64,000 nt of DNA. Origin: an uncultured Enterobacteriaceae bacterium (GTDB taxonomy: Bacteria > Desulfobacterota > Binatia > Bin18). Within the stretch, counting starts at the first letter, position 1. Every line of letters starts with the position of its first letter. The DNA is taken from assembly GCA_964495015.1 (NCBI GenBank), contig CAZBUD010000009.1, forward strand, positions 3,371 to 67,370, read 5' to 3'. Of this stretch, positions 52,260 to 57,206 are shown piece after piece. Both the position numbers and the translations under genes were made by a program. A model generated the notes under the pieces. It worked only from the letters and a program-made list of their open reading frames with translations, did no database searches and was not told the DNA's origin.

Positions 52260-52478
52260 CTAATTACGATCAGCCCAGTTTTTTCCCTCTTGGAGGGCAT
52301 AATCGTCTGCTTCTTCTTCACTGGTAAACGTCCGTTCGCTTTCACGGAGCGGAAAAAATTCATCGACGATCCCATCGATCAACCGAAAGACCCGTGCTGC
52401 TGGCTTCCACTCATCCGTATCAAGCTGTTTTGATCGCGGCTCAATGTAAAAGCCTTCATATTCTTCGGTGTCACGCAT
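52260..52478 (-). CDS. Small acidic hypothetical protein (72 aa) downstream of the selenoprotein
   Basis: MRDTEEYEGFYIEPRS...WKP...FTSEEEADDYALQEGKNWAD. Protein-like composition, co-oriented, 49 bp after the Grx stop. Confidence 0.6.
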   Translation of the reverse strand: MRDTEEYEGFYIEPRSKQLDTDEWKPAARVFRLIDGIVDEFFPLRESERTFTSEEEADDYALQEGKNWADRN

Positions 52479-52527
52479 ATTGAGACTTCTTTCTTTCTAG
52501 GGATGAGAATTGAGGGGGTTATGAGGC

Positions 52528-52764
52528 CTAAAGCCCCAACAGTTCCAGGAGCTTCGCCTTATTAAAGCCAACAATGACTTCCTCGTCGAAGATAATTACC
52601 GGTAGATGCCCCCGGCCTGCGAGTTGTTGGAGGCGTTCTTGGGCCGCAGTGTCTGTCGTCACGTCGTAGGCTGTGAAATCGATTCCTGCTTGCGAAAGAA
52701 ACTCTTCCGCCGCTTTGCACGGGGCTCAGGTTGGTGTGGAGTACACTGCGCAGCGTTTGTCCAA
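52528..52764 (-). CDS. Glutaredoxin/NrdH-like selenoprotein with UxxC motif (78 aa; TGA at 52726-52728 read as Sec)
   Basis: AGAGGT RBS + TTG start. MDKRCAVYSTPT-U-APCKAAEEFLSQAGIDFTAYDVTTDTAAQERLQQLAGRGHLPVIIFDEEVIVGFNKAKLLELLGL* reads in a single frame, has the thioredoxin-fold cis-Pro (LPV) and IVGF, and has a SECIS-like hairpin after the TGA. Confidence 0.85.
52685..52725 (-). promoter_or_regulatory. Bacterial SECIS element
   Basis: After the UGA: upper stem GCGGAAGA/UCUUUCGC (8 bp) with apical loop GUU, whose G lies 23 nt from the UGA. Lower stem CC(G)UGC/GCAGG. Confidence 0.75.
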
Positions 52765-52782
52765 AGGCTACCTCTTGATCGT

Positions 52783-54033
52783 TTATCGGGTACCTAGAAG
52801 AGGTATCCCTACGTCTGTGTCTATTATCGTTAAGCAGCTTCTGCGGTCAAGAAGTACACCCCGTGATAAAAACTTTGCTCCCGCTGGATCCAACTCCAGA
52901 TGCAGCGCTTTCAGACCGCGAAGAATAAAGCCAGGCGTATGAGTGAGGTCATTTTTGTCGGCGGGGAGACGAATATTCTGGGGTCGTGTGGGCAGCGTCT
53001 CAAAAGCAATCTGTGCATCTAAACGGGCAAGCGTCGCACCTAGGTAGTAATGAACGCCCTCGCCTAAGGCCAAGTTATCTTTAGCATTGGCGCGCCGGAT
53101 ATCGGAATGATCCTCTCATGGAAACTGTTCCGTGTCGACTTTTTCCGTGCGAGACAGTCCTTGGACTGAAGATTCGATACGCAGTGCCCGCTCGATATAG
53201 CTCGGCATGAGGGAATGATCTGCCCGGAGTGCCTGCATTTGTTCCGGGTGTTGAAGCGGCAGGAGCAGGGCGCTGGCGATGACACTAGTTGTTGTCTCGT
53301 TTCCAGCAACAAGAATTTGGCTCAGAATATTGAGCATCTCACCAGCGTCGAGCGGAGTCTCTCCTTCGAGTTGGCCGTTGATCAAATCGGTGAGTAAATC
53401 ATCATGCAGAACCGTTCGTCGCTCCTCAAACTTGTCTGCAAAATAGTGCTGGAATTCGACCATGCTGTACGCACACTCAATCTCCCGCTCAAGGCTAATC
53501 GTCCGCCAGAGAGGGCGACGGCATCATCTGACCAGCGCTTAAAATCCGGTAGATCTGCACGGCTCACGGCCCAGGCGTCGGCAATAACGGTGAGCAGCAC
53601 GGGGGCTGCAAACTGCTCAATGAGTTCAACCTTACCGTCCTCAATGAAGCAATCAATCAAATCATTGGCAATTGTACAAATACTTGGCTCTAGTTCCGCA
53701 ACGCGCCGAGGCGTAAAGGCATTGTTCACGAGCACACGATTCCGACGGTGCGCCGGCGGTCGTTGGTAAGCAGCCTAGCCACCGGCAGCCAACCTTGCTT
53801 GAGAATCTCCACAACTTCCTGTGGTGGGTTGGCTCTGACCCCTGGGCCCGTTTTTGAGGGGGGCGTCTCCGTATCATGCACAGTTTTTTTTATGTCTTCG
53901 TGTGTAGTGACAATAAAGAAAACCATACCCGGCACCTGATACATGGATGCCTCAGTGCGCATGGCTGTATAGAATGGGAGGGACACTCAATTCTTTCGGG
54001 CGCAGACGGATTAAACTGTGCTACTGCCGACGT
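52783..54033 (-). pseudogene. Cytochrome P450 pseudogene (multiple frameshifts)
   Basis: Fragments in several frames: PFYTAMRTEA, NNAFTPRRV, AGNETT (I-helix), ERALRIES (ExxR), GEGVHYYLGA (FGxGxHxC with Cys to Tyr). The apparent start is ACG at 54033 behind a GAGGT RBS. Confidence 0.85.
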
Positions 54034-54167
54034 GCTACTGACCTCGTATCAATGGAAGTCGCTGTTCGGTTTTTAGTGCCTGGATGTGTGGAGAATGGCA
54101 AGCTGCGTGTGCTGAGTTTGATCGGTGTCCTTGGCCTGGTCGGCCATCCTCAGTATCATCAGAAAGT

Positions 54168-57100
54168 ATGAATCGAATCTCCGTTCGTTTACTCAGTCTT
54201 TTTGCCCTTTTGTCTCTTCTCTCACCTCCCTCATCGCCGGCGTTCCCAGAACAGCTCCCTGGCAAAGAGAAATCTATCCAAAGCCCTCATGTCCACGGGG
54301 TTGCAGCTACGAAGGCGGAGGAGTCTCATGCTTGGAAAGAAGCCGTCTTGCTGACCGATATTCGCCAGGTCACGTTCGCTGGAAGGCGGGCTGGGGAGGG
54401 ATATTTCAGCCCAGATGGATCTCAGCTTATTTTTCAGAGTGAACGCACAGCGGGTAATCCTTTTTTTCAGATCTACCGTATGAAATTGCCAGACGGCAAA
54501 ACGCACAGAATCTCGCCTGGAACAGGTAAGACAACCTGTGCCTGGTTCCATCCCCTTAAACAAAAAGTACTCTTCGCTTCAACGCACGAAGACCCGGATG
54601 CGCAGAAAAAGCAGCAAAGCGAGATCGAACGACGTGCCTCAGGAGAGAAGCGCCGGTATGAATGGGACTTTGACGAACACTACGACCTGTTTGAAGCAGA
54701 TGTTAACGGACAGAATCTGCGTAACCTGACTCAAACGAAAGGTTATGATGCCGAAGGGTCTTGGTCGCCGAACGGGCAACTCATCGTCTTTACCTCAAAT
54801 CGGCATGCTTATACGCAAAGCCTGTCTGGTGAAGATCAGAAGCGTTTTGCCCAAGATCCTTCGTCTCAGATGGACGTCTATCTCATGCGGCTCATGCCAG
54901 GCGACGGCCTAGGACTACGCCGCCTGACGACTGCCCCAGGGTATGATGGCGGGCCTTTTTTCAGTCCAGATGGAAAACGTATTGTGTGGCGACGCTTCTC
55001 ACCCAGCGGTGCACAGGCAGAGGTCTGGACGATGCGTATCGACGGGACGGACAAAAAACAGATCACTCGTCTGGATGCGATGTCGTGGGCTCCCTATTTT
55101 CATCCATCCGGCGACTATCTGATCTTTACGACGAATCTGCATGGTTTTGATAATTTTGAGTTATACATTGTTGGTAGACAGGGCCAGGCTGACCCTGTTC
55201 GTGTCACTCATACAAAGGGCTTTGACGGGCTACCTGTCTTTGCTCCGGACGGAAAACGGCTGGCGTGGACCAGTAGTCGGACGGCGGACAAAAAAGCCCA
55301 GATTTTCTTTGCCGACTGGAACGATGCCGAAGCGCGTTGTTTGCTTGGACTTGAGACCCGAGCTTCGGATCAGGCTGCTGCTGAATCGACGTCAGCGATT
55401 CGGACGTGTGAATTGCGCCGTACCGTTGCCGATCTAGCCTCAGAGAAAATGGCAGGCCGATTGACGGGCACAGAAGGAGAAAGGCTCGCAACCGAGTACG
55501 CCGCCGCTATCCTCGAAAGATATGGCCTCGAACCAGCCGGAGATAACGGCACGTTTTTTCAGTCTTTTGAGTTCACGGCTGGAGTATCCCTTGGCCGAGG
55601 GAATGTCCTGATACGACAGACCGATTCGAACCAAGAAGGACAAGTTAGCTATCAGATTGGAACAGACTGGCGACCGCTTACGTTCTCCAAGATTGGTGCC
55701 TTTGATCGAGCAGAAGTGGTCTTTGCTGGCTACGGCATTGTCGCTCCAGCAACGGAGGCATACGAGGAGTACGATTCTTTTATTCATCTGGATGTGACGG
55801 ATAAATGGGTGCTTGCATTCCGCTATCTACCGGAAGGCATAGACGCCAAATACCGCCAGCATCTCAACCGTCACGCCAGCTTGCGCTATAAAGCCATGGT
55901 CGCTCGAGACCGTGGCGCGCGCGGTCTCATTATTGTCAGCGGTCCGAATACCAAAGTCAAAGACCAATTGGTCAAACTGTCCTTCGACGCATCCCTTGCA
56001 GGAACGAGCATTGCCGCACTATCCATCACAGATGTACTTGCACAGGAGTGGCTCGGTCACGCTGGAAAGTCGCTCAAAGATCTGCAAACTGCTCTTGATA
56101 CAGGGCAGCCGACGGCCGGATTCCCCATAACAAGCCTGGGGATTGGAGCCACTATTGATATTCATCAAGAGAAACGAAATGGACGGAATGTACTCGCACG
56201 TTTGTCTACTCGCACAGATCCATCAGCGACTGGCATGGTCGTTGTTGGTGCTCATATCGATCATCTTGGAAACGGCGTAGGAGTTGGATCGCTGGCGCGT
56301 GAGGAGGAAAAGGGGCAGATCCATTACGGCGCGGATGACAATGCGTCGGGGGTGGCCGCCGTGCTGGGGATTGCTAAAGCTCTTGCGCTGGAGCAGGCGA
56401 AAGGGGAGGGCGCCATCAAAGGCGGCCGCAGCCTCAAACGAGACCTCCTGTTTGCCCTCTGGTCTGGGGAAGAAATGGGTTTGCTCGGATCGAGTCATTT
56501 CACCAAGACCTTTGGCCAAACCGGAAAAGCGCCTGAGAGGCTCTCTCCTGATGTTGTGGCCTATCTCAACTTGGATATGGTTGGCCGATTTGATAAGGCT
56601 CTGGTTCTCCAGGGAGTAGGCTCAAGCTCAATTTGGCCGAGCGCGATTGAGCGCCACAATGCGCCTATCGGCCTCCCTTTGACCTTGCACAACGACAGCT
56701 ATCTGCCGACGGATGCGACGGCGTTTTATCTCAAGGGAGTCCCTATTTTAAATGCGTTTACCGGTGGGCATGCGGAGTATCACTCTCCACGCGATACGGT
56801 GGAGAAGCTCAACTATCCTGGCCTTACAAAAATCACGCAACTGATGGCGGGGTTGATCCGATCAGTAGCAAACCGCGAAGAAGTGCCCGACTATATAGAG
56901 ATGGGGAAGCCCCATGGCCCTGTTGGCCGGGTTCGTCTACGTGCCTACCTGGGAACGATTCCGGACTACACCCAAGGGGATGTCACTGGCGTACAACTCT
57001 CTGGTGTGGCAAAAGGAGGACCCGCGGATTTGGCTGGGGTCCGAGGCGGTGATATTGTCGTGACGTTGACGGGCAAGACGGTGGAAAATATTTATGATTA

Positions 57101-57206
57101 CACGTATGTCGTCGATAGTTTGAAAATTGGTGAGCCGGTTGGCATTGCTGTGTTAAGGAATGGTCGGCGGGTCGAATTGACTATTGCGCCTGCGTCGCGG
57201 GAATAA
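54168..57206 (+). CDS. Secreted M28 peptidase with TolB-like PD40 repeats, PA and PDZ domains
   Basis: Signal peptide; GEGYFSPDG/DGGPFFSPDG repeats; GAHIDH, GADDNASG, GEEMG, NLDMVG, YHSPRD; C-terminal YLGTIPDY...GGPA PDZ. Confidence 0.9.
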   Translation: MNRISVRLLSLFALLSLLSPPSSPAFPEQLPGKEKSIQSPHVHGVAATKAEESHAWKEAVLLTDIRQVTFAGRRAGEGYFSPDGSQLIFQSERTAGNPFFQIYRMKLPDGKTHRISPGTGKTTCAWFHPLKQKVLFASTHEDPDAQKKQQSEIERRASGEKRRYEWDFDEHYDLFEADVNGQNLRNLTQTKGYDAEGSWSPNGQLIVFTSNRHAYTQSLSGEDQKRFAQDPSSQMDVYLMRLMPGDGLGLRRLTTAPGYDGGPFFSPDGKRIVWRRFSPSGAQAEVWTMRIDGTDKKQITRLDAMSWAPYFHPSGDYLIFTTNLHGFDNFELYIVGRQGQADPVRVTHTKGFDGLPVFAPDGKRLAWTSSRTADKKAQIFFADWNDAEARCLLGLETRASDQAAAESTSAIRTCELRRTVADLASEKMAGRLTGTEGERLATEYAAAILERYGLEPAGDNGTFFQSFEFTAGVSLGRGNVLIRQTDSNQEGQVSYQIGTDWRPLTFSKIGAFDRAEVVFAGYGIVAPATEAYEEYDSFIHLDVTDKWVLAFRYLPEGIDAKYRQHLNRHASLRYKAMVARDRGARGLIIVSGPNTKVKDQLVKLSFDASLAGTSIAALSITDVLAQEWLGHAGKSLKDLQTALDTGQPTAGFPITSLGIGATIDIHQEKRNGRNVLARLSTRTDPSATGMVVVGAHIDHLGNGVGVGSLAREEEKGQIHYGADDNASGVAAVLGIAKALALEQAKGEGAIKGGRSLKRDLLFALWSGEEMGLLGSSHFTKTFGQTGKAPERLSPDVVAYLNLDMVGRFDKALVLQGVGSSSIWPSAIERHNAPIGLPLTLHNDSYLPTDATAFYLKGVPILNAFTGGHAEYHSPRDTVEKLNYPGLTKITQLMAGLIRSVANREEVPDYIEMGKPHGPVGRVRLRAYLGTIPDYTQGDVTGVQLSGVAKGGPADLAGVRGGDIVVTLTGKTVENIYDYTYVVDSLKIGEPVGIAVLRNGRRVELTIAPASRE

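Follow-up and report, generated by a model that had tools for sequence, protein, structure and literature searches.

Glutaredoxins (Grx) in which selenocysteine (Sec, U) takes the first place of the redox motif, giving UxxC, are a kind of selenoprotein known since 2004–2005. A survey of the Sargasso Sea recorded 10 sequences of this type (COG0695/PF00462; PMC1088965), others were reported from Geobacter sulfurreducens, Alkaliphilus metalliredigenes, and Moorella thermoacetica (PMC1794560), and a 2026 review lists the UxxC glutaredoxin among the selenoprotein families with experimental support (PMC13188914). The described protein that most resembles the one considered here is cGrx1 of Clostridium (Alkaliphilus) oremlandii OhILAs (PDB 7c10/7c12; Kim et al. 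2011, as represented in PMC13188914 and PMC7642778), a protein that natively contains Sec, in a U(or C)PXC motif; it was crystallized with Cys in place of Sec, and was proposed to be the reductant of a selenoprotein MsrA (PMC7642778). Related folds are found in Cys proteins, namely BC3987 of Bacillus cereus (3zij) and the NrdH-redoxins (1h75, 4fiw), with the motifs CPPC and CVQC. Both BC3987 and the NrdH-redoxins are reduced by thioredoxin reductase.

An earlier note, made from the letters of a 64,000-nucleotide stretch of DNA from an uncultured Binatia lineage (the window, part of contig C9 in an assembly of 4.37 Mb, 106 contigs, and 54% GC), had claimed a genuine selenoprotein of the glutaredoxin type. 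We consider it very likely that the window holds a genuine Sec-encoding gene for a small glutaredoxin-like oxidoreductase with Sec as its nucleophile; the claim is supported by a conserved TGA, a SECIS hairpin, homologs with Cys, selection on the coding sequence, and the Sec machinery of the genome. The glutaredoxins of the surveys and the window gene are alike in having UxxC within a Grx domain and a SECIS inside the coding sequence, directly after the UGA and with an apical G. This likeness is drawn from the family description; the surveys (PMC1088965, PMC1794560) do not name the Binatia clade and predate the Binatia genomes. The window gene shows all the sequence-level traits of the family (Grx fold, aligned UGA, consensus SECIS), its genome has the Sec-decoding trait, and on its sequence we assign it to the known UxxC glutaredoxin selenoprotein family, in which it was previously uncounted. 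Because this family is established, the finding is less novel than the earlier note implied. A literature search for Binatia or Binatota together with selenocysteine returned nothing relevant, an absence that is weak evidence.

The Gene and Its Predicted Product

The features of the gene, all on the minus strand, are as follows.

52776..52771, minus strand: Shine–Dalgarno sequence AAGAGG, read from the sequence, 6 nt upstream of the TTG start
52528..52764, minus strand: coding sequence of the predicted 78-aa glutaredoxin-like selenoprotein, with TTG start, UGA as Sec codon 13, and TAG stop
52764..52762, minus strand: TTG start codon (ATG in all relatives examined)
52728..52726, minus strand: UGA selenocysteine codon, residue 13, first position of U-A-P-C
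52717..52719, minus strand: TGC codon of the resolving Cys16, read from the sequence and its translation
52710..52692, minus strand: predicted bacterial SECIS hairpin GCGGAAGA-GUU-UCUUUCGC, 8-bp stem, loop GUU at 52702..52700
52530..52528, minus strand: TAG stop at the end of the frame, the TGA being the one in-frame stop codon before it

With the TGA read as U, the translation is MDKRCAVYSTPT-U-APCKAAEEFLSQAG...LLGL, 78 aa long, and in full MDKRCAVYSTPT-U-APCKAAEEFLSQAGIDFTAYDVTTDTAAQERLQQLAGRGHLPVIIFDEEVIVGFNKAKLLELLGL. The coordinates, the Shine–Dalgarno sequence, and the frame are as first proposed, and codon 13 does open the redox motif, U-A-P-C. AAGAGG is also kept in the close relatives L020–L022, and besides the in-frame TGA there are no frameshifts or further stops in the window gene. 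Under the standard code, the list of open reading frames offers just a GTG-started piece of 44 aa downstream of the TGA, which lacks both strand beta1 and the redox motif.

Family scores were computed with U scored as C. Pfam Glutaredoxin (PF00462) matches the product at 56.1 bits against a cut-off of 22.9 (E 4.3e-15). The best NCBIfam match is the YruB family (TIGR02196), whose 74.1 bits lie below the cut-off of 88.55, so that the protein resembles this family only and membership was rejected. Also rejected were Uxx-star (NF041212 and NF041211/NF041114/NF047338; 54.9 bits vs. a cut-off of 66), which needs Sec three residues from the C-terminus (U-x-x-stop), whereas here Sec is residue 13 of 78 and the end reads ...ELLGL, and the NrdH-redoxins (TIGR02194; 44.8 bits vs. 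85.75), from which the product is set apart by the motif UAPC, without CVQC or nrdEF linkage.

An AF2 model built from an alignment of eight sequences has a mean pLDDT of 83 and a topology beta-alpha-beta-alpha-beta-beta-alpha (E5-9, H14-25, E30-34, H39-47, E56-59, E62-65, H69-76); as modeled, this is the minimal glutaredoxin fold, and residue 13 immediately precedes the helix 14-25. All top Foldseek matches are Grx or NrdH proteins, the best being PDB 7c10, "dithiol cGrx1" (phmmer E 8.6e-15; TM 0.86/0.89, rmsd 1.5 A, 43% identity), followed by BC3987 and NrdH-redoxins. The window protein and cGrx1 share a Grx fold of about 78–84 aa, Sec13, the resolving Cys16 within U-x-x-C, the absence of the GG/TVP glutathione-site motifs, and KEFLS after the redox motif. 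They differ in the motif itself, U-P-x-C in cGrx1 but U-A-P-C in the window (U-G-P-C in relatives), and in their hosts, an anaerobic Firmicute and an uncultured Binatia lineage, respectively. An in-frame stop was sought in the MsrA of the genome and none was found, so the "tandem Sec" pairing of Grx1 and MsrA in C. oremlandii is not evident here.

BC3987 and the NrdH-redoxins have the same minimal Grx fold (TM 0.78–0.87) and the same length and, like the window protein, lack glutathione-binding motifs; they differ from it in being Cys proteins. In place of the TVP and GG of classical glutaredoxins, the window protein reads LPV and VGFNK, while a second Grx of the genome carries TVPQIFIGDESIGGF. 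Since the TVP/GG motifs are absent and the protein resembles NrdH, BC3987, and cGrx1, a reductant of the thioredoxin-reductase type appears more likely than glutathione. The genome encodes a TrxB-like gene (340 bits).

Distribution of the UGA Codon among Relatives

When 151 Binatia genomes were searched in six frames, 24 distinct TGA-bearing homologs besides the window gene were found. They come from several families of Binatia, range from 88% to about 40% identity, and carry one TGA each, at the identical codon and within the pattern xxP[T/G]-U-xPC. Upstream of the TGA these homologs retain, in frame, the VxVY of strand beta1, and downstream of it the remainder of the fold. These sequences place the gene in a putative Sec-using clade spread through the class. 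A scan of contigs likewise gave three Binatia MAG contigs, at 83–88% identity, with a TGA at the Sec codon.

Cys stands exactly at the Sec position in the archaeal homolog L023 (44% identity; YSTPTCPWC), so that U-A-P-C aligns to C-P-W-C there and to C-P-H-C in PDB 7c10; PDB 3zij and 4tr0 have Cys at this position as well. The earlier note had proposed to look for relatives with aligned TGA and for relatives with Cys, and both kinds were found. The ordinary GrxC paralogs in these genomes have CPYC or CGFC, with no in-frame TGA at the motif.

A search of protein databases returned truncated calls only, six of 62 aa starting MAKEFLSQAG and one of 47 aa. All of these start after the TGA and are without the active site. 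In each of the contigs that encode them, the frame can be followed upstream across a TGA at the Sec codon to an ATG start, with the motif STPT-TGA-GPC, or GPY in one species. The expectation that pipelines would truncate the gene is borne out, as every protein record found for the gene and its orthologs is a 62- or 47-aa fragment.

That gene callers begin after the TGA would suit an ordinary nonsense mutation or an assembly error, the gene being a pseudogene whose product, if any, is the short downstream frame. We regard this as exceedingly improbable: The TGA is shared by 24 independent assemblies down to about 40% identity, the 12 codons upstream of it are in frame and conserved, the next start available in the window is a GTG that would give only 44 aa without beta1 and redox motif, and the sequence past the TGA is under purifying selection (see below). 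A nonsense mutation had been expected to leave close relatives that all carry TGC or TGT here and lack the hairpin; instead, 24 relatives have both the TGA and the hairpin.

Cys16 is conserved in all TGA-bearing homologs with the exception of one species represented by three contigs (L015–L017; ERZ24894577/ERZ25072176 contigs), in which codon 16 has changed from TGC to TAC, giving U-G-P-Y. Judged by its sequence, this ortholog without a resolving Cys is a "mono-selenol" version of the protein.

One ortholog from the same genus (L034; G142:C1:3760469-3760702) has TGG (Trp) at the Sec codon, STPTWGPC, in an otherwise open gene, and also F-to-L and D-to-A changes at conserved positions; it may reflect a one-step loss of Sec use or be an inactivated copy.

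A SECIS Hairpin Supported by Covariation

Folding of the 69 nt from the UGA places the start of the GUU loop 23 nt after the UGA, and the hairpin alone has a free energy of -8.1 kcal/mol; its 3' arm codes for the invariant peptide E-F-L-S. Compared with shuffled sequence, the 69-nt stretch does not fold better (z = +1.18). Single-sequence thermodynamics would therefore not pick out the hairpin, and the case rests on comparative evidence.

For the comparison, 25 distinct sequences of the Sec type were aligned without gaps over the 48 nt from the UGA on. Columns 19–26 form a helix with columns 30–37, with standard pairs in 99.5% of the 200 cells. At pair 20–36, 13 sequences have C-G and 11 have A-U; at pair 23–33, 19 have A-U and 5 have U-A; and pairs 22–34 and 24–32 alternate between A-U and G-U. 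None of 500 shuffles matched the observed pairing or covariation score, and when the partner was slid by 1 to 3 columns either way, pairing fell to 40–77% with essentially no double changes. RNAalifold on the 25 homologs returns exactly the 8-bp helix and nothing else. The covarying positions join the second position of a K/E/M/V codon to the synonymous third position of a Leu codon (CTT or CTA), and an Ala/Glu codon (GCG or GAG) to the synonymous third position of a Ser codon (TCG or TCT). All the sequences have G27 and U28 in the loop, followed by U or A as its third base.

The consensus for bacterial SECIS elements has a loop of 3–9 nt, a stem of 4–16 bp, a G in the first two loop positions that is usually followed by G or U, a distance of 16–37 nt from the UGA, and an MFE of -7.5 kcal/mol or below (PMC13188914). 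The hairpin agrees with all four rules, with a loop of 3 nt in which G is followed by U, a stem of 8 bp, a spacing of 23 nt, and -8.1 kcal/mol. The 8-bp stem, the G-first GUU loop, and the 23-nt distance had been read correctly from the single sequence. The "lower stem beneath" of that first reading did not survive: It is seen just in the single-sequence MFE structure, is absent from the RNAalifold consensus, which gives the 8-bp helix alone, and was rejected.

As the aligned sequences are related, independent compensatory events are probably few (two to three). Part of the conservation of the hairpin could also be at the protein level, because KEFL occurs in the Cys homologs 7c10 and 3zij as well. 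A scan of 52400-52900 against Rfam with E values up to 10 gave no SECIS family and one chance sRNA match (17 bits); we know of no Rfam model for this SECIS element.

Sec-Decoding Machinery of the Genome

The earlier note had predicted selA, selB, selC, and selD in the organism and would have abandoned the selenoprotein without selA, selB, or selC; the full set is present. SelA is encoded at C10:55499-56830 (586 bits), and ARAGORN places a tRNA-Sec with anticodon tca at C10:56883-56978, ~50 nt from selA; the tRNA is also recognized by Rfam RF01852 (67 bits vs. a threshold of 47). SelB lies on C97 and includes the C-terminal part (337 + 41 bits over cut-off, 379 bits summed), and selD on C6 scores 304 bits. 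The selD match (G000:C6:70540-71454) sits inside an open frame of 762 aa, so SelD may be joined to a further domain. The selB model also has an EF-Tu-like match (G000:C32:47281-48471, minus strand; 200 bits) near a contig end, with one TGA in the aligned stretch, which may just be the alignment running past a stop codon.

If decoding follows the mechanism established in bacteria, the hairpin in the mRNA, 23 nt past the UGA, would present its G-U loop to SelB.GTP.Sec-tRNA(Sec), the tRNA having presumably been charged via SelD and SelA, and the ribosome at UGA codon 13 would insert Sec rather than terminate. According to the model and to homology, Sec13 would then stand at the N-terminus of helix alpha1 in the Grx fold. 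There it could attack a substrate disulfide, sulfenate, or selenenylsulfide, and Cys16 could resolve the intermediate into an intramolecular Se–S bond, which would then be re-reduced.

The TGG of L034 counts against the Sec-gene reading, and would be in keeping with near-cognate or suppressor decoding that puts in Trp or Cys at the UGA. Such decoding seems to us very improbable, though a shade less so than a nonsense mutation. Trp at the first position of CxxC would abolish the redox chemistry, homologs have Cys and not Trp at the aligned position, and the genome has the full Sec machinery together with a SECIS that fits the model. Moreover, the orthologs L015–L019 end in TGA, so UGA is still a terminator in this lineage and in orthologs of this very gene.

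Selection and State of the Window Copy

Ratios of dN to dS were calculated by the method of Nei and Gojobori; the 11 codons upstream of the UGA are too few for a stable estimate.

Downstream of the UGA: dN/dS 0.09–0.23
Whole gene: dN/dS 0.09–0.27
Window copy vs. nearest relatives: dN/dS 0.23–0.27
Nearest relatives vs. one another: dN/dS 0.20

These ratios indicate purifying selection downstream of the TGA, in place of the raised dN/dS that the earlier note had named as a sign against Sec. As the 0.23–0.27 of the window copy is close to the 0.20 between its relatives, there is no detectable relaxation of selection.

Two features of the window copy count against the reading as a functional Sec gene. 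It starts with TTG, whereas every relative has ATG, and it carries substitutions at positions that the clade otherwise conserves (G14A, P49A, and V59F), having UAPC for the consensus UGPC, LAGRG for LPGRV, and IIFD for IIVD. Together with a P450 remnant directly upstream, in a neighborhood rich in pseudogenes, this could mean that the family consists of genuine selenoproteins while the window copy itself is weakened or decaying. We give this a small chance, larger than that of the other two alternatives. TTG is a normal bacterial start, and the Shine–Dalgarno sequence and its spacing are intact, as are the UGA, Cys16, the cis-Pro (LPV), and the whole SECIS helix; frameshifts and extra stops are absent, and the dN/dS against the closest relatives is near that among those relatives.

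Significance for Binatia

Described members of the Binatia are largely aerobic methylotrophs or alkane degraders. We see about an even chance that the class is an unrecognized selenium-dependent lineage with class-wide small redox selenoproteins, the YruB/cGrx1-like Sec-Grx and a second GrxC with U-G-F-C, in which Sec would be ancestral and nearly fixed, the SECIS would freeze E-F-L-S-Q in helix alpha1, and Sec use would now and then be given up, through a TGA-to-TGG change (L034) or when the resolving Cys is lost (U-G-P-Y, L015–L017).

As the public records are fragments that miss the active site, annotation under-calls the redox and selenium biology of the Binatia. The main practical value of the present analysis is in mending the systematic truncation of these genes in Binatia, as the alignment and the hairpin allow correct annotation and could seed a family model. 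It leaves unchanged what is known of Sec decoding and of the nature of Sec-glutaredoxins. What it adds is a well-supported clade of Sec-Grx proteins, from a candidate phylum on which the selenoproteome papers searched are silent. The SECIS also offers a clean natural example of arms that covary through synonymous and non-synonymous codon positions.

Gene Neighborhood

In members of the genus the genes are arranged as M28/PD40/PDZ protease, Grx, an ORF of 72 aa, and NIPSNAP; the neighbors of the window gene are the M28/PDZ protease, the 72-aa ORF, an SDR, and NIPSNAP, with no ribonucleotide reductase genes adjoining. Clustering of the neighboring ORFs across 20 loci found no Msr, Prx, Nrd, or reductase and no conserved functional partner, the only recurrent neighbors being a divergent M28-type peptidase and an opposite-strand SDR, both of which also adjoin the Sec-Grx in more distant families. 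The gene context gives no substrate, because no redox partner recurs nearby.

The M28 peptidase stands divergently beside the Sec-Grx in the window genus and in families about 42% identical (L042, L045, L049, L050); in the window (54084-57206) it also carries fused PD40 repeats and a PDZ domain. The opposite-strand SDR lies downstream in five loci, with no evident functional link. Between protease and Grx, the window has 1.2 kb of a cytochrome P450 remnant (52783-53986, minus strand) in at least four overlapping frames, of which PF00067 matches only the piece 53116-53463 (29 bits). It is absent in the close relative L021, in which the gap between protease and Grx is about 136 nt, and looks like a decayed insertion or pseudogene. 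The 72-aa ORF (MRDTEEYEGFYIEPRSK...; 52260-52478, minus strand) begins 50 nt downstream of the Grx gene. It has 76–96% identity in every genus member examined, more than the Grx, belongs to no Pfam family, and is not beside the Grx in more distant families.

A Putative Second Glutaredoxin Selenoprotein

The genome encodes a second putative glutaredoxin selenoprotein at G000:C27:15788-16009 (minus strand), MKPITVYSSDY-U-GFCSAAKALLTRKG...TVPQIFIGDESIGGF. It is of the classical GrxC type, with U-G-F-C and the glutathione-site motifs present. The UGA is followed after 13 nt by a hairpin, CAGCAAA-GGC-UUUGCUG, whose loop lies at 20 nt and which has -5.6 kcal/mol when folded alone. Many members of the genus have one TGA in this paralog, and one genome of the same genus (G007) has CGFC, with Cys in the place of Sec (L051). 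Just upstream of the C27 Grx lies a frame resembling a pyridine-nucleotide disulfide oxidoreductase.
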